Below, in pieces: positions 3,195 through 38,597 of a stretch of DNA of 64,000 bases. Below the pieces are notes generated by a model. That model had not been told where the DNA came from, ran no database searches, and saw nothing but the letters and a program-made list of their open reading frames with translations. The first letter of the stretch is position 1. Every line of letters starts with the position of its first letter. The translations under genes were made by a program, and so were the position numbers. The DNA comes from Terracidiphilus sp. GTDB lineage: Bacteria; Acidobacteriota; Terriglobia; Terriglobales; Acidobacteriaceae. The stretch is taken from assembly GCA_036267475.1 (NCBI GenBank), contig DATAVZ010000098.1, forward strand, positions 4,974 to 68,973, given 5' to 3'.

Positions 3195-4367
3195 ATGAAA
3201 ATCAGTAAATTTGCCCTGCTCGCAGGCCGCGTCTGCGGCGTTCCTGCCCTCGCCATCGCCGGCGCGCTCTCACTTGCCGCGCCGCTCGCCGCGCAGGCAA
3301 AGCCCAAGATTGCGCCGCCGGGAGACACCCTGCCCACCGCCGGCCCGCTGGCGCACCTTTCGCCCAAACTCTCGCGCCGCGACCTGTCCAAAGCCATGAA
3401 GCTGGTGGCCGACTGGCAACTCAGCCGCCTGCCTGCCGAGCCGCAATATGACTGGACCTGGGCCGCGCTCTACGCCGGCTTCATGGGCGTACCGCACAAG
3501 GTGGCCGGCAACAAGTACCAGAACGCCATGCTCAAGGTGAGCAGCGAGCTCAACTGGCAGCCAGGCCCGCGCGTCATGATGGCCGACGACCAGGCCATCG
3601 GCCAGACCTACCTCGAGCTCTACATGATCCACAAAGATCCCAAAATGATGGGCCCCATGAAGGCTCGGCTCGACGAAGAGATCGCCACGCCCGACCCCAC
3701 CAATCCCAAACGGCCGCTCTGGTGGTGGTGCGACGCCCTGTTCATGGCTCCGCCGGTCTATGCGGACATGGGCAAGATCACCGGCGACGACAAGTATGTC
3801 AAGTTCATGGATCACGAGTGGGACATCACCACCAACCTGCTCTACGACCACGACAAGCATCTCTACTTCCGCGATGCCTCCTATCTTGAAAAGAAGGAAA
3901 AGAACGGCGAGCCGCTGTTCTGGTCGCGTGGCAACGGATGGGTAATGGGCGGCACGGTGCGGGTGCTGAAGATGCTGCCCGCCGACTCGCCGCTGCGGCC
4001 GAAATATGTGGCCCTGCTCAAGGACATGGCCGCGGAGATGCTGTCGATCCAGGGCAGCGACGGCCTGTGGCGGCCCGGCCTGCTTGACGCCGACGCCTAT
4101 CCGCTGCCCGAAATCTCCGGCAGCGCGTTCATTACGTATGCGCTCGCCTATGGAGTGAACGAGGGAATTCTGGACAAAGCCACCTACGAGCCCGCGGTGC
4201 AGAAAGCATGGGCCGGAATGTTGACCCACGTCTACGCCGACGGACGCCTGGGCAGCATTCAGCCAGTGGGCGCAGCTCCCGGAGCCTTCACCGAAACCAC
4301 CAGCTACGTCTACGGCGTCGGCGCCTACCTGCTGGCCGGCTCAGAAATCTACCGCACCGCAAAGTAG
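3195..4367 (+). CDS. Exported glycoside hydrolase, GH105/GH88 family (unsaturated glycuronyl hydrolase, YteR-like)
   Basis: Signal peptide; WWWCDALFMAPP, FWSRGNGW, QGSDGLW and EISGSAFITYAL motifs. Confidence 0.9.
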   Translation: MKISKFALLAGRVCGVPALAIAGALSLAAPLAAQAKPKIAPPGDTLPTAGPLAHLSPKLSRRDLSKAMKLVADWQLSRLPAEPQYDWTWAALYAGFMGVPHKVAGNKYQNAMLKVSSELNWQPGPRVMMADDQAIGQTYLELYMIHKDPKMMGPMKARLDEEIATPDPTNPKRPLWWWCDALFMAPPVYADMGKITGDDKYVKFMDHEWDITTNLLYDHDKHLYFRDASYLEKKEKNGEPLFWSRGNGWVMGGTVRVLKMLPADSPLRPKYVALLKDMAAEMLSIQGSDGLWRPGLLDADAYPLPEISGSAFITYALAYGVNEGILDKATYEPAVQKAWAGMLTHVYADGRLGSIQPVGAAPGAFTETTSYVYGVGAYLLAGSEIYRTAK

Positions 4368-4428
4368 CCTAACCGATCGTCGAGTCAGGCGGCAGGTGGC
4401 CCGGTCATAAAATAACAAGCAACGCTGT

Positions 4429-4700
4429 GTGCCCCATCCATCCACAGTTTTATCGTGGATGGTTGGGAGACCGCGAACCTGAACCCGTCGTGTTCAGAAC
4501 TGGCTTACGATAGGACCATGCAGTCCGGTCTGAAGCGGTTCCACAGGACAGAATCCCTTCACTTCGTCACGTTCAGTTGGCGGGTGTGGACCAGCTCTCA
4601 GGGAATTAAATCCACCACGAAAATGGGTGGCCCAGGTCTTAGGGCGTTAAAATCCACCACGAAAATGGGTGCCCCTGGGTCTCGCTTTTGAGACCCGGGA
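4429..4700. repeat. Cluster of REP-like hairpins and a 22 bp direct repeat around a transposase stub
   Basis: GTGCCCCATCC...GGATGGTTGGGA hairpin (related copy at 21437-21480); AAATCCACCACGAAAATGGGTG at 4608 and 4650; GGGTCTCGCTTTTGAGACCC hairpin. Confidence 0.7.
4518..4580 (+). pseudogene. N-terminal stub of an IS200/RAYT-type (Y1 HUH) transposase
   Basis: MQSGLKRFHRTESLHFVTFS resembles the start of REP-associated tyrosine transposases (..GLKR......LHF.TFSC); similarity stops after about 21 codons. Confidence 0.6.
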
Positions 4701-21480: not shown

Positions 21481-21616
21481 CGACAGTATTTAGTTGCCGG
21501 ATCAATCGCGGCTCGATCTTCTCAGGCTTTTGGAAAGGCTCGGCTCGGAACATGGGAATCAGCATAGGCAACATCTACTTCCTGTCGTGAATCTGACAGG
21601 GAGAGGAAGCTGTGTC

Positions 21617-22522
21617 ATGGCGCGTCCATTCTGGTCCGGTCACCTGCAAATTTCATTGGTTTCATTTGGAATCAGCTTGATTCCCGCTACGGAAGCAGCC
21701 GGCGAGATTCGTTTTCACCAGATCGATCGGCGGACTGGAGAGCGTGTTCGGCATCAGAAAGTCTCCTCAGAAGACGAGGAGCCGGTCGATAAAAGCGACA
21801 TCGTGAAAGGCTATGAATACAGCAAGGGCGAATACATCCAGCTGGAGCCTTCTGAGATTGAGAACTTGAGGATTGCATCCCGTCACACGATAGAGCTCGA
21901 ACAATTTGTCCCTGCAGACGAGATCGATCCGGCGTTCTACGAGAAACCCTACTTCGTTCTGCCTGAAAATTCGGCTCAGGCAGAGGCATTCGCCGTGGTG
22001 CGCGAGGCCCTTGAGGAAACCAAGCGAGTCGGCCTTGGAAAAATCGCGCTGGGCGGCAGAGAGCGCCTCGTCGCGGTAACCCTTCCGAATGATCCGAAGT
22101 TGCGCGGGATGATGGCCTACACACTGCGTTTCGCAACCGAGTTGCGAAGCGCAGCCGAATTCTTCAAAGACATCAAAGGTCACAAGGTCGACCGTGACCA
22201 ATTGTCTTTGGCCAAGGAACTCATCCAGAGAAAGTCGGCTCCGTTCCAACCGGACAAGTTCACCGACGATTACGAAGCGGCGCTACGTGAGCTGATCGAT
22301 GCCAAGCTCAAACATGTCACCCCGCTCAAGTCGCAAGACCGCGAGCCGCGTGGAAAGGTCATCAACCTGATGGATGCTCTTCGGCGCAGCGTCGGCGAAC
22401 AGACCGCCAAGAAGAAGCCCGCGGTTCGTGCTGACGGCAAGGCTGTGAGAGATCGAGCGGGCAAGCAGGGACTTCGGTTGATGCATCCGCGCGGAGCCGA
22501 GAGACGCCGCAAGTCGGCCTGA
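21617..22522 (+). CDS. ku: NHEJ DNA end-binding protein Ku
   Basis: MARPFWSGHLQISLVS, DIVKGYEYSKGEYI, FYEKPYF, VINLMDALRRS, basic C-terminal tail. Confidence 0.96.
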   Translation: MARPFWSGHLQISLVSFGISLIPATEAAGEIRFHQIDRRTGERVRHQKVSSEDEEPVDKSDIVKGYEYSKGEYIQLEPSEIENLRIASRHTIELEQFVPADEIDPAFYEKPYFVLPENSAQAEAFAVVREALEETKRVGLGKIALGGRERLVAVTLPNDPKLRGMMAYTLRFATELRSAAEFFKDIKGHKVDRDQLSLAKELIQRKSAPFQPDKFTDDYEAALRELIDAKLKHVTPLKSQDREPRGKVINLMDALRRSVGEQTAKKKPAVRADGKAVRDRAGKQGLRLMHPRGAERRRKSA

Positions 22523-22533
22523 GCCCCCTCCTC

Positions 22534-25242
22534 ATGAGCAAACGAGAGTCACTCGCCGCTAATCCAGCCAAACGTACTTCGAAGCAGCAACTCGCAAAGT
22601 ACCGGGCGAAGCGCGATTTCAAGCTCACTCCGGAGCCAAGCGGAGACAAGCAAAAAAGCGGGAGTCAGAGCAAACGGCGCAAATTGTCGTTTGTGATTCA
22701 GAAGCACGCGGCTACCCGTCTGCATTATGACTTCCGGTTGGAGTGGGACGGAGTTCTCAAAAGCTGGGCGGTCGCCAAAGGGCCGAGCTACTATCCCGGC
22801 GACAAGAGGCTGGCGATTCAGGTCGAAGACCATCCACTCGACTACGGTGGCTTTGAGGGAATCATCCCCAAGGGACAATATGGCGGCGGCACGGTAATGC
22901 TGTGGGATCGTGGAACATGGGAACCTGTCGGGGACGCTGCGGAAGGACTTCGACATGGAAATCTCAAGTTTGTGCTGCACGGCGAGAAATTGCGCGGTCA
23001 CTGGGTTCTTGTTCGCATGGCGGGGAAATTTGCCAATCAATCCAAGCCCAGCTGGTTACTGATTAAAGAACACGATGGAGATGAACGGGCCGCAAACGAG
23101 ATTCCCATTACCGAAGAAGCACCCAAAAGCGTCCTCAGCGGGCGTGACATGGATGCCATCGCCAAGGCGCGAGATGCAGTTTGGAATTCAAGAGCCGGTC
23201 CATCAGCAGATCCAGCCGATGATCGCAATTCACCGAAGCGCACAAGGACCGATCCAGCCGCCAGACTCTCCAAATCTTCCCAAGCCAGCACCCTTTCTAA
23301 TCTGGCGTCTCGGCGGCCACATCTGCCCAGGGAGGCGCTGCCCTCGTTCGTTTCGCCGCAACTGGCTTCGATGGGTAAGTCTTCGCCAAATCGCGAAGGT
23401 TGGGTACACGAGCTCAAGCTCGATGGTTACCGTATCCAGGCTCGGGTGCAATCGGAAGGGCAGGCGTCGGTCGGACTTCTGACGCGCACCGCTTTGGACT
23501 GGACAGATCGAATGCGGCCGGTCGCCGACGCACTAGCATCTCTAGAAATTCGCAATGCTCTGTTTGACGGAGAGGTTGTGGTGCTGGCTAGCGATGGCAC
23601 GACGAGCTTCGCAAATCTACAGGCCGCATTTCAAGAGGGCGCCCGGTCTGCACTCACATACTTCATCTTTGATCTTCTCCACCTGGACGACCGAAACCTC
23701 CGTAATCTGCCGTTGTTGGAGAGAAAAGAGATTTTGGCTGAAGTACTTTCCGGTTTGCCTCCCGATAGCTCGATCCGCTTCAGCGAGCATACGGGCGGCG
23801 ACGCAAAGACTGTGTTTGACAACGCCTGCAGGCTCGGTGCTGAAGGGATTATCTCCAAGCAGGCGCAGAGCAAGTATGTCTCTGGCCGCAGCAATGCGTG
23901 GCTGAAATTCAAATGTTATCGGGAGCAGGAGTTTGTTATCGGCGGGTTCACGTTCCCCTCCAACGGCATTCGGGGTGTGGGCGCACTACTCCTGGGTTAC
24001 TACAAGAATGGGAAACTGCTTTATGCAGGCCGCACCGGGACTGGCTTCACACAGAAGACGCATCGTATGATGCGCGACCGGCTTGAGACCATCCGAAACA
24101 AGACATCACCGTTCGCGACGGTCCCAACTCAAATGTGCCGTGGCGTGCATTGGGTCAAACCAGAGCTTGTGGCGCAAGTCTCGTTTGCTAACTGGACCAC
24201 AGACAATATCGTGCGCCAGGCGGCCTTCAAGGGTTTGCGCGAGGACAAGCCTCCAAAGTCGGTTCAACGGGAGGAAGAGCAGGTGGCGCAGAAACGAGAG
24301 AAGGCGAAATCCGGAACGAAGCCGATTCGACGGGAAACAGCACGGGGCAAGCAAATATTCGTGGGAGCATACTCATCGAGGCCGCTGCCGATTCGGTTAA
24401 CGCATCCCGACAAAGTGCTCGACTCGGACTCGGGCCTCACCAAGGAGGGGCTCGCTCACTACTATGCCGCAATTGCCTCACACATGTTGCCGCACATCAA
24501 CGGCCGGCCCCTGTCACTCGTTCGCTGCATGAATGGGAGCAGCAAACCCTGCTTCTTCCAGAAACATGCCAATGAGACGCTGCCGCCCGACATCGAAAGT
24601 GTCGACATCGTCGACAAGAAGACCGGCACGCCAGAGCCTTACATCACACTATCGACGCCTGAAGCGCTCATCGAACTTGCTCAGGTGAACGTATTGGAAA
24701 TCCATTCTTGGGGATCAAAGAACAGCTCTCTCGAAATGCCCGATCGAATTGTTGTTGACCTCGATCCCGACACGACAATCGACTGGAAGATGCTCGCAGC
24801 CAGCGCAATTGAAGTGCGAGAGAGAATGAAGGCCGCCGGCCTTGCGTCTTTTCTCAAGATAACCGGTGGAAAGGGTCTGCATGTCGTGGCTCCGATACGG
24901 CCGGAGCATGATTGGCTTGCAGTGAAAGATTTCGCTCATCGCATGGTGCTTGCTATGGAGGCGGACAACCGCTCGCTCTTTCTCACGCGCATGACGAAAG
25001 CCGCGCGCAAGGGCAAGATCTATCTCGACTACCTGCGCAACGAACGAGGAGCCACTTCGATTGCGCCTTTTTCTCCGCGTGCGCGGGAGGGAGTATCCGT
25101 CGCCCTTCCATTGGATTGGTCTGAATTGAGGTCAACTGAGCGGCCGATTTTCCGCGTATCGGACTTCGCTGAATGGAAAAAACGGCTGCATCGCGATCCC
25201 TGGAGAGAAATGCTGAAAACGGCACCACGCCTGAAAATCTAG
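22534..25242 (+). CDS. ligD: DNA ligase D (phosphoesterase-ligase-polymerase)
   Basis: PE motif QKHAATRLHYDFRLE, ligase ELKLDGYR and EGIISK, polymerase CFFQKH and DLDP. Confidence 0.97.
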   Translation: MSKRESLAANPAKRTSKQQLAKYRAKRDFKLTPEPSGDKQKSGSQSKRRKLSFVIQKHAATRLHYDFRLEWDGVLKSWAVAKGPSYYPGDKRLAIQVEDHPLDYGGFEGIIPKGQYGGGTVMLWDRGTWEPVGDAAEGLRHGNLKFVLHGEKLRGHWVLVRMAGKFANQSKPSWLLIKEHDGDERAANEIPITEEAPKSVLSGRDMDAIAKARDAVWNSRAGPSADPADDRNSPKRTRTDPAARLSKSSQASTLSNLASRRPHLPREALPSFVSPQLASMGKSSPNREGWVHELKLDGYRIQARVQSEGQASVGLLTRTALDWTDRMRPVADALASLEIRNALFDGEVVVLASDGTTSFANLQAAFQEGARSALTYFIFDLLHLDDRNLRNLPLLERKEILAEVLSGLPPDSSIRFSEHTGGDAKTVFDNACRLGAEGIISKQAQSKYVSGRSNAWLKFKCYREQEFVIGGFTFPSNGIRGVGALLLGYYKNGKLLYAGRTGTGFTQKTHRMMRDRLETIRNKTSPFATVPTQMCRGVHWVKPELVAQVSFANWTTDNIVRQAAFKGLREDKPPKSVQREEEQVAQKREKAKSGTKPIRRETARGKQIFVGAYSSRPLPIRLTHPDKVLDSDSGLTKEGLAHYYAAIASHMLPHINGRPLSLVRCMNGSSKPCFFQKHANETLPPDIESVDIVDKKTGTPEPYITLSTPEALIELAQVNVLEIHSWGSKNSSLEMPDRIVVDLDPDTTIDWKMLAASAIEVRERMKAAGLASFLKITGGKGLHVVAPIRPEHDWLAVKDFAHRMVLAMEADNRSLFLTRMTKAARKGKIYLDYLRNERGATSIAPFSPRAREGVSVALPLDWSELRSTERPIFRVSDFAEWKKRLHRDPWREMLKTAPRLKI

Positions 25243-27167: not shown

Positions 27168-27212
27168 TGGTGGACGCGGTAGGAATCGAACCTACAACCT
27201 GTCGGTTAAGAG
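27168..27212. other. att core duplication (3' half of tRNA-Lys)
   Basis: TGGTGGACGCGGTAGGAATCGAACCTACAACCTGTCGGTTAAGAG, identical to 38522-38566. Confidence 0.95.
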
Positions 27213-28726: not shown

Positions 28727-28908
28727 CTGCACCCTCTCAGGCGGAAAGTTTCTCCGGGTAATGAGAAAGTGGATGTAGCCGCGATTCCAAAGGTTTCCCG
28801 ATTAGGTGATAGATACGGGAGCATCCGATTACTAAAGTGATGATTTTCTAAATGATCCGTCTGGTGCCATTGGGATAATTCTAAGGTGAGCCAGCCAGAA
28901 AGGAAAAC

Positions 28909-29394
28909 ATGAGCAAAATAACAAACATCTTCAGAGCATCGGAGGTAGACACATTCACAGTGCCTGCTGCCGTCTTCAATCGGCTGCTCACCGATCCCAA
29001 GGTGAAAATGAGCACTACTATTCTTTATGCCTATATCTTGAGCAAGGCTGATTCTCCCATGGTGCGCATTTACACAGGCGATGCATTGAACGATACCGGC
29101 CTATCGCGTCCTGTGTTCATTGAAGCCAGAGAAACCCTAGTTGCGGCCAAACTCATCAAGGCAAAAGAAACCACGAAGCAAGGTGTGTGGGAGTATGAGA
29201 TTCGTTCGGAGCATGGTGGCAAGCTGGCGACATTTGAAGACTTCATTGTCTTCCGCGATTTGGCAGCCGAGCAGATTGAGGCTTACTATGCGAGTCGCCT
29301 GGGTGTGAAGAAAGCGCCCGGCCAGAAGTCAGACAACAACCTGCTCTTCTACTGCCCATTTCATTCAGAGAAAGGCAGCGACCCAAAGCACTAG
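28909..29394 (+). CDS. Putative replication initiator, N-terminal part: winged-helix domain plus first half of a primase-type zinc ribbon (CPFH); truncated
   Basis: FTVP..F..LL...TILYAYILS...TGLSRPVFIEARETLVAAKLI initiator-like wHTH; stops 9 residues after CPFH; AGGAAA RBS. Confidence 0.6.
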   Translation: MSKITNIFRASEVDTFTVPAAVFNRLLTDPKVKMSTTILYAYILSKADSPMVRIYTGDALNDTGLSRPVFIEARETLVAAKLIKAKETTKQGVWEYEIRSEHGGKLATFEDFIVFRDLAAEQIEAYYASRLGVKKAPGQKSDNNLLFYCPFHSEKGSDPKH

Positions 29395-29560
29395 CTGCGG
29401 TAGCTGTAGCGGCTGTTATCGCGCCCGCCATCAGGTTAAACGACCGTTCTATATTTTTGCTGGAGTTCAAAGCTACAGCCGATGCCTTTTCCATGCCGCT
29501 CTGAAAGCTGGCAGTTTCCGCCGAAAGAGAAATCTGAATGTTTCCAATTTTTATAGCCAA
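29390..29560 (-). pseudogene. N-terminal stub of a tail tape measure protein
   Basis: MAIKIGNIQISLSAETASFQSGMEKASAVA...MAGAITAATATAASALG; TTG start with AGGAG RBS; the rest of the formal ORF (to 29243) is antisense to the rep gene. Confidence 0.65.
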
Positions 29561-29569
29561 TGTGGTCTC

Positions 29570-29947
29570 CTATACTTTCGGTACAAGATCGGGACGGCTG
29601 GCAACTCTGCGTGCCATCTCTTCTTTAACCCATGCAGCGGTCAACGGATCAACGCGGTCATAATGGGCAGCAATCTCCTCCGGCGTCATGAACGTACCAA
29701 GCCGGGCAATGCGCTCTACTTCACAGTAGGGAATGCGGCGAGCACCAAGGATATTGATAGATTGGAGTTTTCCAGATTTCAGAAGGTTAAAAATGGTACG
29801 CTCCGAAACTTTAAGGATGCGGGCAATCTCACGGATTGTGTAAACCGGGGAAACATCATCCTTAAATTCAGGAAGGTCTGAAAGCTGTGCGAAGACTGCT
29901 TCTAAGGCCGCCTCGGTATGCGCAGGGCGAATAGGGTGTTTAGACAT
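29570..29947 (-). CDS. Excisionase/AlpA-like helix-turn-helix regulator
   Basis: VYTIREIARILKVSERTIFNLLKSGKLQSINILGARRIPYCEVER; GGAG RBS. Confidence 0.8.
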   Translation of the reverse strand: MSKHPIRPAHTEAALEAVFAQLSDLPEFKDDVSPVYTIREIARILKVSERTIFNLLKSGKLQSINILGARRIPYCEVERIARLGTFMTPEEIAAHYDRVDPLTAAWVKEEMARRVASRPDLVPKV

Positions 29948-30594
29948 GGGTTCTCCTTCCGCTCGCGGTCTGTACCGGGCATGTCTGGTGTTGGTTAAAT
30001 TGTGGGATAAGAATCTTGCGGCTACCGCTACATACTCATAGATCAATTTTTTCGGACAAAAGGGACACTACCTGAAACTTTCTTCATTTTTGTTCGATCG
30101 GCTGCGGTTTCGTGCAGTCCTCTTCATACTCATAGATCAATTTTTTCGGGTAAAAGTCCCGGCTCGCCCAAACTTTTCTCAAAATAATTTCCGCTGGATA
30201 GGTCTGCACACTTTGCAGTGAAATTCTAAAGGAGTTAAGCGAAATGACCGAACCGCGTAGACGCATCGCTCGAAAAGTGTAGGCTACCCCATCACTTCTT
30301 TCTGCCGCAAGCGCGTTGCCCGGTTGCTGCCTCTTGCCGCTAGATTCTGAGTAGTGGGTCAGACCCTCAATCGCGCACTTCACCGAGGAATTTTGCTAGA
30401 GCCTCGATGGTGGGTGGGCAGTTCCCCGCTGGCGGGGAACTGGTCAATCTCGAATCCCGGCGCAATACGGATAACATCAGATCGCTGACGTTCGCCAGTC
30501 TTGATGGGCATCTCTTCCGGCCTGATCTTGCCAGCAGCCAGGGCATCCAAAGCAGACGTGATGGTCTCTCGCAGAACGCTGGCGTCAGTCTGCC

Positions 30595-31161
30595 CTATGC
30601 TGCACCTTGCCGGATGGCTTGTGCCTCACTGCCCCATGCAGCCTCGGTTGTCTCATGCTGCTCGAACGGTCGCACGTCAATCTGACGACGCATTCCATTC
30701 TGGCGTCTAAATTCGCGCTCTGCATCTTCGCGGCGTTCTTTGGTAATCTGCCGCGTGGCCTTGGCAACCGCATCACGCACTAGAATGTTCTTCCGTTCTG
30801 CTTCTATCGCCTTGGCATCTTCACTCTTGAACAGCACATCTATGACTTTCTGCAACCTGTTGGCCGCAGGTTTGTCTGCGAAGTGAAGCTGAGACCATAC
30901 AGCATCCAGGCTGGCACGCACAGCGCGGGTGCAAGCATGGCATCTCTTGCCGGTCGCTACGGTCTCATGGTCGCAGCGGTCGAAGTAAACCCGGCTGGCT
31001 ACAGCACCAGGTGCTTTTCTTGCTGTGAGTGATTCTTGTATTGCCGCCGTGGTGCAGGCAGGGCAAGCATAAACGGGATTCTGCCCTAGTGTGTGAAAGG
31101 TGAATGGCTGTGCAAGGCTGCTGGACTCTCCCAGGTGCTGGCAAAGATCAGGTGTAGACAT
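30595..31161 (-). CDS. Cys-rich hypothetical protein (188 aa)
   Basis: AGGAG RBS; CQH, CPAC, CDH and CHAC motifs, then a charged helical C-terminus. Confidence 0.65.
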   Translation of the reverse strand: MSTPDLCQHLGESSSLAQPFTFHTLGQNPVYACPACTTAAIQESLTARKAPGAVASRVYFDRCDHETVATGKRCHACTRAVRASLDAVWSQLHFADKPAANRLQKVIDVLFKSEDAKAIEAERKNILVRDAVAKATRQITKERREDAEREFRRQNGMRRQIDVRPFEQHETTEAAWGSEAQAIRQGAA

Positions 31162-31445
31162 GGTTCTCCTGTGTACCGGATGTGACCGGCTAGTAAATGT
31201 TTTGAGATTTGGCCGCATGTGGACCAGGATTGTAACCAGGGTTGTACCGCTCGCTACGCTCGCTCAAAAGATGGCGAACCACAAGACTTTTACCCCTTGA
31301 TGTTTCAGACTAGGTATAGCCTTGGCTAGATCAGCGCAGGTACCATCCTGAGACCGCTCGCTCAAGAAGCCTGTATACAGGCACTGTAATTAAAGAGCAT
31401 ATATCTTCCGAACAACTCATCTGTTTTCTTATAGATAAGCCTCGA

Positions 31446-31530
31446 ATCTGTAAAGATTCTTTACACCTAGGCTCTATTATCTGTAAAGATTCTTTACACT
31501 TGGCATGGGTCGATGTAAATAAAATTGACA
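31446..31530. promoter_or_regulatory. Phased palindromic operator/iteron array
   Basis: ATCTGTAAAGATTCTTTACAC at 31446 and 31479 (33 bp period; 17 bp palindrome); degenerate third copy TGTAAATAAAATTGACA at 31514. Confidence 0.7.
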
Positions 31531-31534
31531 CCCG

Positions 31535-31834
31535 TTAGATGGTCACTTTCGAAGCCTCGGTTAGCCGTCTCATCTCCGCGATAGCCGGGTGTTCTGCTTT
31601 ATCAGGAGTCAACCTGCCAACCATGAAGGATCGCACCGCTTGGGATGCCTGCGATTTGGTGAGATGCTGGCCGCGCGTCTCTGACATGGCTTGCTCGAAT
31701 TCGACGAGTCCACCACGGCGACCGCAGCGAGCTTTGCCGCAGATGTACCTACCGTGGTGCTCTCCACGGTCTACAGAAACAGTGAGAGTGGGTTTCGGGT
31801 TGCCGCCGCTGTTATGCCGTGATCTGGTCTCCAT
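31535..31834 (-). pseudogene. Second half of a primase-type zinc-ribbon protein, complementary to the 28909 ORF
   Basis: PKPTLTVSVDRGEHHGRYICGKARCGRRGGLVEF matches the post-CPFH half of CHC2 zinc fingers. Confidence 0.55.
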
Positions 31835-32260
31835 CGTCGTTTAGACACGATTTCAAGATGCGTGCTGCCCTTTTCGTAATCTCCAAGGTTTTTAGTCCAA
31901 CTTTTGGATAGTAGCCTACGGGCAGCACCATGCTGGTTTTCTCATTATTTACCAGCCTTGCGGGTGTAGGCGTCAACTCCTACACCCGATAAGTTTAAGT
32001 TGCACGTGCGGGCGGACTGAATGGTCCCTAAGTTTTAGTCTATCTTCGGGTGCTCATAACTCAATAGCCCGCACGTGCCAAAGATTCAATCAACATTGCA
32101 GCCGATGACTGGTGACCGTGCCTTGTGGGAGTGCCGCGTGTCCTGGTCATCGGTGCAGTTGGGTACACATCTGGAAAAGCCTGCGTCCGTGATATCGATC
32201 ACGGATATAGTGCAACGTGTGCTGATCCATAACCAAACCACGTAAAGGGAACAACTCATC

Positions 32261-32419
32261 GTGAAGAATCTTACAGACGTTATTAATCTTGAAAATATAT
32301 TTTCCGTCCGCGTAGGAGACGATCCAGAGAATGATGTGGACAACAGCCTGGATGCCATGACGGAACAATCTTCGTCCGACACAGACGATCTAATCGCAAT
32401 TACATTCGAGGTTGTCTAA
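32261..32419 (+). CDS. 52 aa acidic small protein directly upstream of the fibre gene
   Basis: GTG start after AAAGGG; 13 Asp/Glu against 2 Lys/Arg; stop lies 2 nt before the next ATG. Confidence 0.4.
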   Translation: MKNLTDVINLENIFSVRVGDDPENDVDNSLDAMTEQSSSDTDDLIAITFEVV

Positions 32420-32421
32420 TA

Positions 32422-33498
32422 ATGGCCGCACCAACAACAAGTATCATGCTCAACACTTCCACGCCTGCTCCTCCTAGTGGACAGCAGAATGTAGCCTTTC
32501 AATCCGATGGTGACACGCCACAGCAGAGAGTTTCAGCCTATATGCCGGTTGCTACTTCATCCCTGTCCGGCGCAATGTACCCAGATGGTGCGACGTGCGA
32601 AGTAGATGGCGCAGGCAAGCTGACTGTGCTCGGCACGACGGGCAGCACGAATGCAAGCGAAATTCAGGGTATAGCTGTTTCTGCCACAACCCCCACCACA
32701 GGTCAAGTACTCGAATACAACGGTACAGAATACGTGCCAACAACACCAAGCATCACCAGCAGCATTACCGCACACTTCGGCACAGCCGACCCTAACGGAG
32801 CAAACACACCTGCAAGCGTGCAATCTGCGTCTGCTGGTGGTGGTTCGGTCGCTCTGTCTTCATCGGTCACCGAAGGTAATTTACTGGTCGTGGTTTTTTC
32901 TATTGACACCTATGTTCCGGGCCGAACATGCACCGATACACTCGGCACCAGCTACACGCAATTGGAAAACCTTTCAACACCGGAAGAGCTAGACGTGTGG
33001 GCTGGCATTGCGCCTGCATCTGGTACCAACACAGTGACCATTTCGGGCAGCATGAATTATCGGCCTGCAATGACAGCCTGCGAGTTTTCTAACGCTACTA
33101 TCTCCGTGGATCAGTCCATCACGTCTTCAGACCATTCATCGATGGCTGGTCCTATCTCTGTGACAACCGCCGCGCCGAATGATCTGGTACTCGCTTGCGT
33201 AGGTAGCAGCAGTGGTGGTTCCGCTACCGTTTCGTCTGGATTCACACAGCTATCTGACCAAGAGGCAGCCTACAACCAAAACGTCACAGCCGTTGCCTAC
33301 TCAGTCGAAACCAGCCCTGCATCGGTATCTGCTTCCTTTTCGCTCCCGAGTACAGGAGCGTGGTGTATGGCGTTGATTGCGCTCAAGGCAATCTCTGACC
33401 CGGTAAGTGGCACCGAAGGTGATCTGTACTTTCAAACCAGTTCCAGCCCGTACACAAGCTATGTGTTGCATAGTGGCGCGTGGCAACCATTCAGTTAA
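32422..33498 (+). CDS. Virion fibre/spike-like structural protein
   Basis: Ser/Thr/Gly/Ala-rich; PTTGQVLEYNGTEYVP and GTADP...GTEGDLYF...Y..HSGAW motifs typical of phage fibre proteins. Confidence 0.6.
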   Translation: MAAPTTSIMLNTSTPAPPSGQQNVAFQSDGDTPQQRVSAYMPVATSSLSGAMYPDGATCEVDGAGKLTVLGTTGSTNASEIQGIAVSATTPTTGQVLEYNGTEYVPTTPSITSSITAHFGTADPNGANTPASVQSASAGGGSVALSSSVTEGNLLVVVFSIDTYVPGRTCTDTLGTSYTQLENLSTPEELDVWAGIAPASGTNTVTISGSMNYRPAMTACEFSNATISVDQSITSSDHSSMAGPISVTTAAPNDLVLACVGSSSGGSATVSSGFTQLSDQEAAYNQNVTAVAYSVETSPASVSASFSLPSTGAWCMALIALKAISDPVSGTEGDLYFQTSSSPYTSYVLHSGAWQPFS

Positions 33499-33553
33499 GC
33501 CATCTGTGACTGTGATCATCTTACTGTAAGGTTATGGTCCACTTTGGGCACAG

Positions 33554-33647
33554 CGGGGATATGGGGGTCGAATAGTTTCAACCTTTTGGGCTCTACGGAA
33601 CGCGCGTGAATCTTCGGCGTGCCCCGTCAGTGCGAAAACCGAAAAAT
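33554..33647. other. Candidate cos packaging region
   Basis: GGGGATATGGGGGTCGAATAGTTT...GGAACGCGCGTGAAT...GCGAAAACCGAAAAAT just upstream of terS; similar in layout to the ends of HK97-like cos phages. Confidence 0.45.
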
Positions 33648-33800: not shown

Positions 33801-34286
33801 ATGAGCAAACGAAAATCGACTGCAAATCATATTGCGGCGGGCACCTTCCGTGCCGATAGACATGCAAAGAGTAGACTCACATTCCCGCCTGCGACCGGCA
33901 CCGCACCACGTTGGCTATCCAAGGTAGCCAAAGCAGAATGGAGGCGTGTAGCGCCCTTTCTGCTTGAGCAGGGCGCACTCCTGGAAGTGGACACGGCAAT
34001 TCTTGCTGCCTACTGCACCGCGTTCGCTGGATACCTGGAAGCAAAGTCTCTGGTGGATGAGCAAGGGCAGATTATCACCGTCACGTCACAGACGCGCACG
34101 GGCAGCACATCAAAGCCGATCCGAAATCCTGCCGTTACTCTCATGCTGGATTATCAGCGTTCAATGCTGGCAGCCGCGAGCAAGATGGGTTTCAGTCCCT
34201 ATGACCGCGAACGCATCGAGGGGCAGGAAATCGAGCCTGAGACTGCTCTCGCAGAAGACGAATTCCCTGAAGCCTTATACGCATAA
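33801..34286 (+). CDS. Phage terminase small subunit, P27 family
   Basis: APRWLSKVAKAEWRRV, DTAILAAYC, RNPAV, ASKMGFSPYDRERI. Confidence 0.88.
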   Translation: MSKRKSTANHIAAGTFRADRHAKSRLTFPPATGTAPRWLSKVAKAEWRRVAPFLLEQGALLEVDTAILAAYCTAFAGYLEAKSLVDEQGQIITVTSQTRTGSTSKPIRNPAVTLMLDYQRSMLAAASKMGFSPYDRERIEGQEIEPETALAEDEFPEALYA

Positions 34287-34321: not shown

Positions 34322-35176
34322 ATGACAAAGCACAAAACTCCCACGCGGGAGCTGCGCACAACCACGTCCAAAGCTCAACCTATGACCGTCCGCACCCTCG
34401 CTGATGGCAGCAAGCAAATTGGTGGCTACGCGATTGTATTCAACTCACGCAGCGTTGACCTTGGCGGATTCACGGAGATTGTTTCTCCTGGTGCAGTCAA
34501 GCGAACGCTCAAAGATGGTCACCCGATCCTCGCATTGCGTGACCATAAGCAAGAGCTGCTGCTCGGCAACACAGCGGCGGGAACGCTCGAACTCAAAGCA
34601 GATTCAAAGGGTCTCGCATTCACCATCACCCTTCCGAGAACCGCAATCGGTGAGGATACGGCAGAGAACGTCAGACTCCGTAACTTGTTCGGCGTGTCGT
34701 TCGGATTCAGCGTCAACTATAGCGAAGATGCAGAGGGTGATTCATGGGCAGCCGATGCTGACGGCAACGTAGTTCGCACCTTGCTTGACATTGATCTGTT
34801 TGAAGTGAGCCCTACCAGCTTTGCAGCCTATCCCGAAGCCAGTGTTTCTACGCGGAGCGCATCACCGGACATCCGAGCAAAACTGAAAGCGAAGCGGGCA
34901 GACCCTGGTTATGTACAGGGACTCGACATGCTCGGCATTCTCAACACCCCAGACGATACCGATCTTGACAACACGGACGGCGACAGCGAAGACACAGATG
35001 GCGAAGAACAGTGCTCCTGTATGCGGAGTGCTGCCTCTTGCGTAGCGTGTCGCACTGGAGACCATGCCAATTGCAATGCTGAAACCCGCTGCGATTTTGC
35101 AGACCGTGATGCTGACCAGCAACGCAGCGATTCACTCCGCATGAAGACACTCATCGCACGGCGAATGGCCGTGTAA
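34322..35176 (+). CDS. HK97-family prohead protease with acidic and Cys-rich C-terminal extension
   Basis: GYAIVFNSRS.DLGGFTEIVSPGA, catalytic His region LRDH, GVSFGF (Ser), LFEVSPTSFAAY. Confidence 0.93.
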   Translation: MTKHKTPTRELRTTTSKAQPMTVRTLADGSKQIGGYAIVFNSRSVDLGGFTEIVSPGAVKRTLKDGHPILALRDHKQELLLGNTAAGTLELKADSKGLAFTITLPRTAIGEDTAENVRLRNLFGVSFGFSVNYSEDAEGDSWAADADGNVVRTLLDIDLFEVSPTSFAAYPEASVSTRSASPDIRAKLKAKRADPGYVQGLDMLGILNTPDDTDLDNTDGDSEDTDGEEQCSCMRSAASCVACRTGDHANCNAETRCDFADRDADQQRSDSLRMKTLIARRMAV

Positions 35177-35258: not shown

Positions 35259-35348
35259 GCAAAGCAAATTCCCTCGGCCGTGAATTTAACCGGCCAATCC
35301 CACAACCTTTCAACCTACTCGGCAAACCCGAGAGAAAGATTCACATAC

Positions 35349-36578
35349 ATGGATTTGCAGCAACTTAAATTTAATCGCAATAAGCTCCTTACCGATATGA
35401 GCACCATTGCAGGCAAGCCCTGGTCTACGGAATCCCGTGCTCAGTTCGACCAGATGAATGTGGATGTGACCAATCTGGAGTCAGACATTCAGCGGGCAGA
35501 GACACTGGCGTCTTTGAACGCGAAAGATCAGCAGTTCACGCGGTCTCCTCGCCCTCAGGTGAACGGCAGCACTACGGATGAAACCAGCGTGGAGTATCGC
35601 AAGAAGAATTTCAGCGAAGCATTTCGTCAGTATGCTCTGCATGGTCGTGCGGGTCTGAATCAGGAGCAGCGCGATCTGTTGACCACATCTGCGGCGACGG
35701 GGGGCGCTCTGATTCCCCAGTTGTTCAATGATTCGCTGACCATGGCTCGCAAGTTCTACGGACCTATTGCGGACAAGGTGAAACAGAAGATCACAGACAA
35801 GAATGGTGCTCCGGTGAAGATTTCACTCGGAAACGATACCACCCATGGACTCACGTTGCTTGGTACGGAAGGTACTAGCTCTCCTGCTGAGACCGATCCG
35901 TCGTTTCAGGCTAATATCCTGGGCGTGGACACCGTAACTGGTGGTCTGGTGAAGGTGTCTTTTGAGGAACTTGAAGACTCTGCGTTCGATTTGGATGCTT
36001 TCCTGCGTGAATCGTTCGGTATGCGCTATGCGCGCGGTCTCGAAAAGGCCATCACTGTAGGCACGGATTCAGCGGGCACTCCTTTGCCGAACCAGACTGC
36101 GGGAGGAATTTCTGCGGGTGCAACCGTGGTTGTCACGACTGTTGCTATCGCGGAGGGCCTTGGGTGGGATGACCTGACGGCTGCATATACCGGCTTGGAC
36201 CCGGCTTATGTGCAGAATGCGTCATGGGTCATGAACTCGACCACTCGTGGTTACTTGGTTGGATTGAAGGATGGGTTTGGCCGCCCATATTTTCAGCCGG
36301 ACCCCTCAGATAATGCGCCTTTCAGTCGCATCCTTGGATTCCCCATCGTGCTTAATCAGTCGATGCCTGCAATGGGTGCTAGTGCGATTCCGATTATCTT
36401 TGGAAGCCTCGCGGACGCCTATATGTTGCGCACAGACGGGCAGCCGTCGATTCTGCGCCTAAATGAGCGATTCGCAGACACGCTGGAAGTAGGTTTCTAT
36501 ATGTGGACCCGCATCGGAGGAATTTCACTGAATGCGGGCGTGACCCCGCTGGTTTCGATTCAGCAAGCGAGCAGCTAG
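35349..36578 (+). CDS. HK97-fold major capsid protein with N-terminal delta/scaffold domain
   Basis: Coiled-coil N-terminus, TGGALIP, WVMNSTT...LKDGFGRPYFQP, ILGFPIV, IIFGSL. Confidence 0.93.
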   Translation: MDLQQLKFNRNKLLTDMSTIAGKPWSTESRAQFDQMNVDVTNLESDIQRAETLASLNAKDQQFTRSPRPQVNGSTTDETSVEYRKKNFSEAFRQYALHGRAGLNQEQRDLLTTSAATGGALIPQLFNDSLTMARKFYGPIADKVKQKITDKNGAPVKISLGNDTTHGLTLLGTEGTSSPAETDPSFQANILGVDTVTGGLVKVSFEELEDSAFDLDAFLRESFGMRYARGLEKAITVGTDSAGTPLPNQTAGGISAGATVVVTTVAIAEGLGWDDLTAAYTGLDPAYVQNASWVMNSTTRGYLVGLKDGFGRPYFQPDPSDNAPFSRILGFPIVLNQSMPAMGASAIPIIFGSLADAYMLRTDGQPSILRLNERFADTLEVGFYMWTRIGGISLNAGVTPLVSIQQASS

Positions 36579-36982: not shown

Positions 36983-37249
36983 TTGAATATCGAAACAACC
37001 ATAGCGACTGAGCGTGGCGCAATTGAATCAATCATGGCTGCGAGCAGAGACCTTTTCGAGCCGTTGCTGACCGCAGAGGAAGCGGCGGAATATCTTCTCA
37101 TCCACGTCAAGACACTTCAGAAACTTGCCCGTGAAAAGCGGGTTCCCTGTGTTCGCATGGGGAAATATTGGAGGTTTCGCCTGTCTTCTCTTGACTCTTG
37201 GGTGACGGCACAGCACAATCAAATGCAGCCAACCGTTGTGTGTGAGTGA
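36983..37249 (+). CDS. Excisionase (helix-turn-helix, HTH_17-like)
   Basis: LLTAEEAAEYLLIHVKTLQKLAREKRVPCVRMGKYWRFRLSSLDSWV; AGGAG RBS; directly upstream of the integrase. Confidence 0.85.
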   Translation: MNIETTIATERGAIESIMAASRDLFEPLLTAEEAAEYLLIHVKTLQKLAREKRVPCVRMGKYWRFRLSSLDSWVTAQHNQMQPTVVCE

Positions 37250-38521: not shown

Positions 38522-38597
38522 TGGTGGACGCGGTAGGAATCGAACCTACAACCTGTCGGTTAAGAGCCGAATGCTCTGCCAGTTGAGCTACGCGTCC
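38522..38597 (-). tRNA. tRNA-Lys(CTT), integration target
   Basis: Reverse complement GGACGCGTAGCTCAACTGGCAGAGCATTCGGCTCTTAACCGACAGGTTGTAGGTTCGATTCCTACCGCGTCCACCA. Confidence 0.95.

Follow-up and report, generated by a model that had tools for sequence, protein, structure and literature searches.

Kilobase-sized segments that lie opposite to their counterparts in relatives and interrupt a gene are known from programmed switches, namely those of the serine invertases Hin, Gin, Cin and Pin, the tyrosine invertases of Fim systems and the Rci shufflons. One-off spontaneous inversions, characterized by imperfect microhomology, a single orientation, deletions and gene scraps, and the loss of a maintenance gene, are known from cryptic prophages and other degenerate elements. 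Among mobile islands, the cfPICI model of SatelliteFinder requires nine or more of its 11 core components, TerL, portal, head-tail adaptor and connector among them (PMC10085698), and treats tail genes as a forbidden component (PMC10085698). Most satellites found with this tool come from Proteobacteria and Firmicutes (PMC10085698), and our literature search turned up no described satellite in Acidobacteria.

The locus compared here with these systems is an island of 11,354 bp within a 64,000-nucleotide stretch of DNA (the window) from an uncultured, Terracidiphilus-like member of the Acidobacteriaceae. It is flanked by a 45-nt repeat, its tyrosine integrase adjoins tRNA-Lys, as in other tRNA-integrated islands, and GC content falls to ~0.50-0.53 within it (Table 1). 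An Rfam scan of the island returned the tRNA and nothing else, and our search for an empty att site yielded none, as the synteny of the 424-aa flanking gene was not conserved in 72 Acidobacteriaceae loci, none of which held a related island. Like cfPICIs and other phage satellites, the element is small (11 kb) and integrated, with an integrase, HTH_17/AlpA-like regulators, a replication gene (here broken) beside an ori-like site, TerS, a prohead protease and an HK97-type capsid, and its relatives carry a head-tail connector gene. It departs from the cfPICI model in that no ORF for TerL, portal, head-tail adaptor or connector was found within the 11.35 kb, in its tail-gene scraps (a tape-measure stub and a putative fibre-like gene), in a replication protein devoid of a primase or helicase catalytic domain, and in its acidobacterial host. 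The island is a satellite-like element or reduced prophage, and it is decaying, as further losses relative to the related locus L011 also show, namely a 376-nt deletion at 32154/32156 and the absence of a Neck1-like gene.

Table 1. Features of the island and of its inverted block (window coordinates)
Feature	Position	Strand	Remarks
attL	27168-27212	.	45-nt perfect direct repeat of the tRNA-Lys 3' end; left island end
rep 5' fragment	28909-29384	+	winged helix and first zinc knuckle C149-P-F-H152; 76% nt identity to L005 2925-3396; winged-helix fold matches
Left inversion breakpoint	29381-29391	.	best model between 29384 and 29385
Tail tape-measure N-terminal stub	29385-29560	-	~58 codons; phrog_2854, E 6.7e-7, residues 4-59
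HTH_17/excisionase-family DNA-binding gene (HTH125)	29570-29947	-	Pfam PF12728, 3.7e-8; TIGR01764; 125 aa (JGI call)
Two 38-nt direct repeats	30025-30062 and 30119-30156	.	89% identical
ORF207	30595-31218	-	188 aa by JGI call; 84% identical in L011, 62% in L005, colinear with rep
Conserved non-coding region just 3' of rep	31392-31534	-	77-79% nt conserved in L001, L002, L005 and L006
rep 3' fragment	31535-31796	-	second zinc knuckle C178-x4-C183 and C-terminal helices; 76% nt identity to L005 3413-3815
Right inversion breakpoint	31792-31797	.	best model between 31796 and 31797; 91% L011 homology begins exactly at 31797
Last 16 codons (GLPPLLCRDLVSIVV, then stop) of a gene 169 aa long in L011	31797-31844	+	91% identical DNA in L011
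Remnant of 145-aa gene	32075-32245		upstream of fibre-like gene
Fibre-like gene (putative)	32422-33498	+	no family match; 51% identical to a 357-aa protein of L011
TerS, P27 family	33801-34286	+	
Prohead serine protease S78	34322-35176	+	
HK97-type major capsid	35280-36578	+	
HTH_17 excisionase-like gene (xis)	36983-37249	+	
Tyrosine integrase (int)	37262/37376-38458	+	
tRNA-Lys(CTT)	38522-38597	-	its 3' 45 nt (38522-38566) = attR

Two ORFs on opposite strands of the island, 28909-29394 (+), with its stop codon at 29392-29394, and 31834-31535 (-), are complementary parts of one gene (rep). Aligned to an HMM built from intact homologues only, the first covers model positions 1 to ~158 (E 4.4e-87) and the second positions 155-240 (E 2.4e-40), bearing out the initial annotation, which had described them as halves of a replication gene and whose ORFs, translations and coordinates we reproduced. 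A search for an intact winged-helix/CHC2 homologue of the joined protein, fused between ...DPK and PTL..., was successful, returning full-length single chains of 238-250 aa with 48-74% identity (P0001-P0010). The wider family is large, with 65 of 106 clusters (50% identity) reaching E<=1e-10, most of these 65 being 220-260 aa in length and spanning both halves. No relatives were found in the species-representative genome collection or in IMG/VR, and a metagenome scan returned two.

The initial annotation had also held that joining the halves gives a complete CHC2 zinc ribbon. The four ligands are indeed present in the pattern C-x2-H ... C-x4-C (C149, C178 and C183 invariant and H152 nearly so in an alignment of ten sequences) and are split two and two across the ORFs, but the joined protein matches Pfam Zn_ribbon_DnaG (E 0.006-0.01) at 16.0-16.9 bits, under the gathering threshold of 24.9 bits. 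It additionally matches phrog_47 DNA primase (E 1.4e-4), and neither half searched separately matched either profile. Homology of the ribbon to CHC2 (PF01807) is nevertheless likely, albeit by an indirect route, because remote members of the family, of ~400 aa and carrying Toprim_2, score above the PF01807 cut-off (29-40 bits) at the homologous position. Sequence searches of the PDB with the full and C-terminal rep profiles gave nothing usable, and Foldseek returned generic winged-helix matches for the full model and no PDB match below E 0.3 for residues 132-221, which AF2 models as four short strands followed by helices (pLDDT 73). CHC2 DnaG-type primases, which pair PF01807 with Toprim, share the ligand pattern with rep and the domain pair with the ~400-aa members. 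The 245-aa joined protein differs in that it has no TOPRIM domain, being too short to hold one. Given this lack, the Pfam score below cut-off and the N-terminal winged helix, it is probably not a primase but an initiator or adaptor that binds the origin.

Just 3' of the gene, the conserved region at 31392-31534 contains two palindromes, ATCTGTAAAGATTCTTTACAC (31446-31466 and 31479-31499), and a conserved AT-rich block. In L006 and L008 the palindromes vary in concert, and the region is presumed to be a Rep-binding site or origin. Judging from its domain content and its place beside these conserved palindromes, the intact protein would be a replication initiator of ~245 aa, comprising an N-terminal winged helix, the putative CHC2 zinc ribbon (C149, H152, C178, C183) and C-terminal helices.

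Comparison with relatives indicates how the gene came to be split. Positions 2925-3396 of L005 correspond to window 28895-29363 on the plus strand, but positions 3413-3815 and 4100-4460 correspond to 31795-31392 and 31153-30787 on the minus strand. Similarly, L011 928-1624 and 1638-1738 match window 31288-30593 and 30350-30250 (-), and L011 2800-3155 matches window 31797-32154 (+) with 91% identity. Both relatives therefore carry the block opposite to the window relative to its flanks, as the initial annotation's inversion would have it. Gene order in L011 is rep, ORF207, HTH, 169-aa gene, 145-aa gene, fibre-like gene, Neck1-like gene and TerS, all on one strand, and the plus strand of the P0009 contig likewise encodes rep, HTH_17, a 174-aa gene, protease and capsid. 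In the relatives, ORF207 immediately follows rep and the ori-like region. Since L005 and L011 are colinear on one strand, it is the window that carries the derived inversion, of about 29385-31796. Flipping the block places rep, the palindromic repeats, ORF207, HTH_17, the tape-measure stub, the fibre-like gene, TerS, protease, capsid, xis and int on a single strand, as had been predicted, and the stub, also named initially, is real (Table 1).

The breakpoints can be placed to within a few nucleotides, and rep stays in frame for any breakpoint pair with b1+b2=61180. At the distal junction, two unrelated, out-of-frame scraps meet: the tape-measure stub, which has a TTG start and ribosome-binding site 9 nt past the HTH gene (whose own ORF extends to 30046) and whose reading frame now enters antisense rep, and the tail of the 169-aa gene. 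HTH125 had no homologue besides itself, an exact-sequence look-up was also empty, and NCBIfam and Pfam gave nothing informative for the small ORFs of the block. No un-inverted relative with the HTH125/tape-measure-stub module was found, so the immediate un-inverted ancestor is unobserved.

The same arrangement recurs in independent assemblies. Unitigs of 11,367-8 bp from runs X1 and X2 are identical to the window, at depths of 106 (flank 117) and 40 (flank 39), respectively; short contigs of X4 cross both junctions (29308-29975 and 31528-31848), one of X5 crosses the right junction, and JGI contigs from two samples agree. No opposite orientation or strand-change joint of the window's element was present in the contigs of five independent soil metagenomes (up to 106x), although contigs drop rare variants, and a low-frequency opposite orientation could therefore be missed. 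A joint in X3 linking opposite strands (30273/31800) was considered as a candidate un-inverted form and rejected, as it belongs to a diverged element (a 408-nt match with 82 differences, ~80% identity). Its likely source is a relative resembling L011, in our view, since L011 matches in the same way (window 30350 to 30250, then 31797 on, with ~1.06 kb unrelated between).

Based on these data, we favor a fixed, one-off illegitimate inversion of 29385-31796, probably accompanied by deletion, that inactivated the rep gene of a degenerate satellite-like island, and assign this reading a probability of roughly 0.85. The initial annotation had considered two other origins and had noted imperfect inverted 18-mers at the block ends (29374-29391 against the reverse complement of 31790-31807). 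These are present, at 13 of 18 positions, but do not rise above chance: 577 of 1000 shuffles gave a junction local alignment that was equal or better, and 5 of 300 random position pairs gave a 13/18 match within +-12 nt. Moreover, from 31797 on, the right 18-mer is the coding tail of the neighboring 169-aa gene, conserved in L011.

This last result bears directly on the improbable proposal that the N half and the C-half block derive from two diverged rep genes, recombined between elements in opposite orientation. The island family is mosaic, with L011 sharing ORF207 (84%) and the right arm (79-91%) with the window but having a rep that is 35% identical and a different HTH module; the distal junction does link unrelated fragments; and an L011-like relative occurs alongside the window's element in run X3. 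However, the argument from an overlap and paralogous copies fails because the right arm belongs to an unrelated gene, of which it forms the 3' end; we accordingly rejected the idea that both halves keep an overlapping rep segment, the supposed overlap (HNSGGN) being antisense of the neighbor's tail. The exact complementarity of the halves and their in-frame join fit one cut in one gene, not two independent breakpoints. Furthermore, the halves show 74.2% and 75.6% amino acid identity to L005 and equal identity and ranking across every homologue, as expected of a single source gene, and no second rep copy was found within the window.

It is very unlikely that the block is instead a programmed reversible switch that turns replication off and on, with the island integrase or a host recombinase acting on the terminal 18-mers. 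Re-inversion would restore an in-frame rep, both halves are undamaged ORFs, the island does encode a tyrosine recombinase, and the block ends do have the 13/18 inverted similarity. Yet that similarity is at chance level, its right arm is part of a conserved gene, and the junctions bear no likeness to an att core. No site-specific invertase, whether a serine invertase or a second recombinase, was found in the island, where the tyrosine integrase on the att side, at a distance of 5.5 kb, is the sole recombinase. The relatives have no such repeats around an invertible block, the contigs of the five metagenomes hold one orientation, and turning the block to its supposed 'on' state would fuse tape-measure stub and gene tail out of frame at the far junction, a product without meaning. 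In comparison with the Hin, Gin, Cin, Pin, Fim and Rci systems, the island lacks an invertase, conserved inverted sites, a second orientation in contigs, and any coding or regulatory logic at the distal junction. The same slim chance applies to a broader version, in which low-frequency reversible inversion would serve as the replication switch of a new family of capsid-encoding Acidobacteriota satellites, with the order rep, palindromic ori, HTH, TerS, protease, capsid, xis, int and with the window, the P0009 contig, L001 and L011 as members.

Still less probable is a natural two-gene arrangement of cooperating winged-helix and zinc-finger proteins. In its favor, each of the two reading frames is open and that of the C half includes an ATG, but this apparent start and the first ~12 codons (METRSRHNSGGN) are antisense of the 169-aa gene's 3' tail, each ORF supplies just two of the four zinc ligands, the majority of family members combine both halves in one chain, and the arrangement was found in the window's element only. 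Finally, although the window derives from a metagenome assembly, a mis-join is next to impossible in view of the identical 11.37-kb unitigs in two independent runs, the junction-crossing contigs in two more, the agreement of JGI contigs from separate samples, and the lack of any repeat of at least 31 nt at the junctions that might mislead an assembler.

Under the favored one-off inversion, one break fell at codon ~159/160, within the variable linker that separates the zinc knuckles, and neither fragment can therefore assemble a zinc site with all four ligands. The 5' fragment retains the promoter and winged helix, while the 3' fragment, now without promoter and native start, still lies beside the palindromic Rep-site/ori-like region and ORF207, but reversed. 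The other break is situated where the N-terminal tape-measure stub meets the final 16 codons of an unrelated gene. We infer that the recombination was illegitimate and non-programmed, and two routes may be envisaged: two or three double-strand breaks rejoined the wrong way round, the host encoding Ku and LigD (21494-25242, 2 kb from the island), or a replication template switch. Either may have used a pre-existing short inverted microhomology between GGCAGCGACCC of rep and the reverse complement of GGCGGCAACCC in the neighbor's tail (9/11). As a simple two-break inversion leaves the joined unrelated fragments unexplained, one has to postulate a further deletion or the reuse of a pre-existing scar, and the DNA that separated the stub from the 169-aa gene tail was probably deleted as part of the inversion event. 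The island probably no longer replicates autonomously. Given that both halves are intact ORFs without frameshifts, either the event is recent or the 5' fragment may keep some function.

The rearrangement itself is of little consequence. It is a clean and well-documented example of a mobile element probably losing its replication gene to a spontaneous inversion. It differs from the cases in cryptic prophages in that the element and its gene family are undescribed, and in that the cut inside a conserved zinc ribbon makes the reconstruction clean. It is useful mainly as a caution that a switch does not necessarily follow from complementary ORF halves combined with weak inverted repeats. Of modest value is the indication that Acidobacteriaceae harbor a set of small islands that encode capsids. 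As a similarly modest by-product, rep defines an unannotated family, ~100 clusters at 50% identity, of ~245-aa winged-helix and putative CHC2 zinc-ribbon proteins that sits beside covarying palindromes and is related to winged-helix/zinc-ribbon/Toprim primases.

The two open reading frames (ORFs) of the island's replication-initiator gene (rep) and their translations match the initial annotation exactly. When joined between ...SDPK and PTLTV... as a search query, the halves yield a protein with nine full-length relatives (207-250 amino acids [aa], 48-74% identity), none of which carries a Pfam annotation. The plus-strand and minus-strand ORFs fill complementary alignment columns, and against a family HMM built from intact homologues only they cover positions 1-~158 (E 4.4e-87) and 155-240 (E 2.4e-40), respectively. 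An exhaustive profile search returned 106 clusters at 50% identity, 65 of them at E<=1e-10, and in most of the family's clusters both halves lie within one chain of 220-260 aa. Together, the complementary HMM coverage and single-chain relatives show that the split is real and that an intact form is the norm.

Neither half alone gave a family match, while the joined protein had a weak match to Pfam Zn_ribbon_DnaG (16-17 bits against a cut-off of 24.9) and one to phrog_47 DNA primase (E 1.4e-4). Across aligned homologues, three of the putative zinc ligands (C149, C178, and C183) never vary, and the fourth, H152, is nearly invariant. Remoter rep-family members of ~400 aa, which have a C-terminal Toprim_2 domain, carry a CHC2 zinc ribbon above the Pfam threshold at the homologous place (29-40 bits), lending support through transitive homology to the zinc ribbon predicted in the 245-aa form. 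Five such members (P0082, P0085, P0092, P0098, and P0105) combine the same winged-helix N-terminus with a CHC2 zinc ribbon and Toprim_2 in ~400 aa. Since it lacks a catalytic domain, the 245-aa form would not itself be a primase and, given the domains shared with the ~400-aa members, looks like a primase after loss of the catalytic domain. An AlphaFold model (pLDDT 78.9) has a winged helix at the N-terminus and Foldseek matches to the DNA-binding domains of CodY, MarR, and RepE (E about 0.01); no PDB neighbours were found for a separate model of the zinc-ribbon part.

Directly 3' of rep, every relative carries two palindromes of ~20 bp (31446-31466 and 31479-31499 in the window), with the sequence GGTGTAAAGAATCTTTACAG and copies 33 nt apart. 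In related contigs L006 and L008, both copies are swapped coherently for another palindrome, GTGTCTAAATTTTAGACAC. Next comes an AT-rich block under strong conservation, AGATTCGAGGCTTAT...TCGGAAGATATATGCT. This region is likely a binding site for Rep or a repressor plus an origin or promoter, and rep with its adjoining palindromes is consistent with a putative initiator and its predicted binding site.

Comparison with related contigs upheld the proposal that the block between the halves is inverted. L005, the source of P0001, which is the nearest intact homologue of the joined protein, matches the window in three stretches (table). In L011, whose copy of ORF207 (30595-31218, minus strand, in the window) is 84% identical, matches to window 31288-30593 and 30350-30250, both on the minus strand, are followed by 1.06 kb of unrelated sequence that holds a 169-aa gene and an HTH gene of its own; beyond this comes a 91% match to window 31797-32154 on the plus strand, and L011 then extends through the fibre-like gene as far as the small terminase gene (TerS). 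On the contig encoding the homologue P0009, rep, HTH_17, a 174-aa gene, protease, and capsid all lie on the plus strand. These arrangements imply that, in the window, block ~29385-31796 is flipped with respect to both of its flanks, and, on these sequence comparisons, the window orientation is the derived state. A 38-nt direct repeat (30025-30062 and 30119-30156; 89% identical, spacing 94 nt) overlaps the 5' end of the block's HTH ORF and the 3' end of its 99-aa ORF.

Features of the island and matching stretches of related contigs
Feature	Window position	Strand	Location elsewhere
ORF with rep 5' half	28909-29394	+	
ORF with rep 3' half	31834-31535	-	
L005 match, first	28895-29363	+	L005 2925-3396
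L005 match, second	31795-31392	-	L005 3413-3815
L005 match, third	31153-30787	-	L005 4100-4460
Palindrome/conserved region 3' of rep	31392-31534		L005 3674-3815; L001 10628-10737; L006 1555-1638; L008 ~1000-1100
Fibre-like gene	32422-33498	+	right arm of island
P27-family small terminase (TerS)		+	right arm of island
S78 prohead protease		+	right arm of island
HK97-type capsid		+	right arm of island
HTH_17 excisionase-like gene		+	right arm of island
Tyrosine integrase		+	right arm of island

Homology to L011 begins at exactly 31797, and window 31797-31844 encodes GLPPLLCRDLVSIVV and a stop, the C-terminal tail of the L011 169-aa protein (...EEIGLPPLLCRDLVSIVV, stop). The minus-strand ORF therefore takes its seeming start and opening ~12 codons (METRSRHNSGGN) from the antisense of this tail and not from rep. 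The right-hand copy of the inverted 18-mers reported at the block's ends is another gene's sequence from 31797 on, terminal inverted similarity is unremarkable (577/1000 shuffles; 5/300 random pairs), and neither junction resembles att. The best breakpoint model is 29384/29385 and 31796/31797; every breakpoint pair that satisfies b1+b2=61180 gives back the same 245-aa protein in frame. The pre-event inverted microhomology is 9/11, between GGCAGCGACCC in rep and GGCGGCAACCC, the tail read as its reverse complement.

The left breakpoint is bordered on its block side by the N-terminal stub of a tape-measure gene (58 codons; phrog_2854, 6.7e-7). Undoing the inversion makes this stub abut, out of frame, the last 16 codons of the 169-aa gene, so that the breakpoint is precisely where two unrelated scraps meet. 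A three-ended event, in which inversion was combined with loss of the DNA between stub and tail, is the most economical reading; alternatively, an older scar may have been re-used at this junction. As to how the inversion arose, host genes for Ku and for a full LigD (ligase, Prim-Pol, and N-terminal domains) lie at 21494-25242, 2 kb left of attL. The host thus has bacterial non-homologous end joining, from which we infer that mis-joining of double-strand breaks is a plausible cause.

The initial annotation had also considered a chimera of two related elements, with diverged paralogous copies, a reading that is not supported. The supposed overlap of the halves is in fact the antisense of the 169-aa gene tail. 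The halves are alike in identity to L005 (74.2% and 75.6% aa), their homologues rank identically by identity, and no second rep copy was found in the window, all of which points to a single source gene and away from two paralogues.

Independent soil metagenome runs (X1-X6) were compared at the unitig or contig level. In X1 and X2, the whole island forms one Logan unitig of 11,367-8 bp each, identical to the window, at a depth equal to that of the chromosomal flank (106 vs 117 and 40 vs 39, respectively). In X4, low-depth contigs cross both junctions, in X5 they cross only the right one, X6 holds only identical fragments that reach neither junction, and JGI assemblies of separate samples have the same arrangement; one JGI soil-metagenome contig of 120 kb contains the window sequence. 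No strand-change joint was reported for the window element in the unitigs or contigs of these runs. The sole such joint (X3) lies in a diverged element of about 80% identity and matches 30350-30273, then 31800 onward; because L011 shows these same matches, we attribute it to an apparently L011-like element. In X3, fragments identical to the window (about 50-85x) occur alongside this diverged, apparently L011-like element (about 24x), so related islands share one community. Although contig-level data can miss a rare minority form, the single orientation in contigs and the lack of any invertase found in the island make the suggested programmed switch by reversible inversion very unlikely. An assembly artefact is excluded by the same arrangement in independent unitigs, junction contigs, and JGI assemblies.

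The island spans 11,354 bp between perfect 45-nt direct repeats (att; 27168-27212 and 38522-38566), the latter being the 3' end of tRNA-Lys(CTT). GC content is 0.49-0.54 in the stretch holding the split gene vs ~0.58-0.65 over most of the remaining window, though it dips to ~0.55 in the 5-6 kb that border the island on the left. The best match of any flanking gene is to Terracidiphilus MAGs (77% aa identity), and the host is an uncultured member of the Acidobacteriaceae. Relative to L011, the island bears a 376-nt deletion at 32154/32156 (L011 3156-3531) that cuts a 145-aa gene to 29 residues, lacks a Neck1-like/tail-completion (gp10-like) connector gene between the fibre-like gene and TerS (gap 33498-33556 vs L011 4722-5219), and has ~159 nt extra before the fibre-like gene (within 32075-32420).

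Like capsid-forming PICIs, the island has an integrase, HTH regulators, a replication gene, TerS, protease, and capsid, but it falls outside the SatelliteFinder definition of cfPICI (PMC10085698) because it lacks TerL, portal, and connectors and contains scraps of tail genes. In L005, a 442-aa AAA_15/AAA_21 ATPase is encoded upstream of intact rep on the opposite strand (1479-2807) and is followed by two small ORFs, a module absent from the window island that is possibly defence-type cargo. Related small islands occur on L001, the P0009 contig, and L011. That of L001 (10001-16288), an Acidobacteria-like contig, adjoins tRNA-Arg(CCT), has the order rep, IS21 (IstA/IstB) insertion, 113-aa capsid fragment, and integrase, and likewise represents a decayed member of this element family. 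These related islands may thus reflect a compact architecture that recurs within the Acidobacteriaceae. The rearrangement described here is an ordinary spontaneous inversion within a decaying mobile element.
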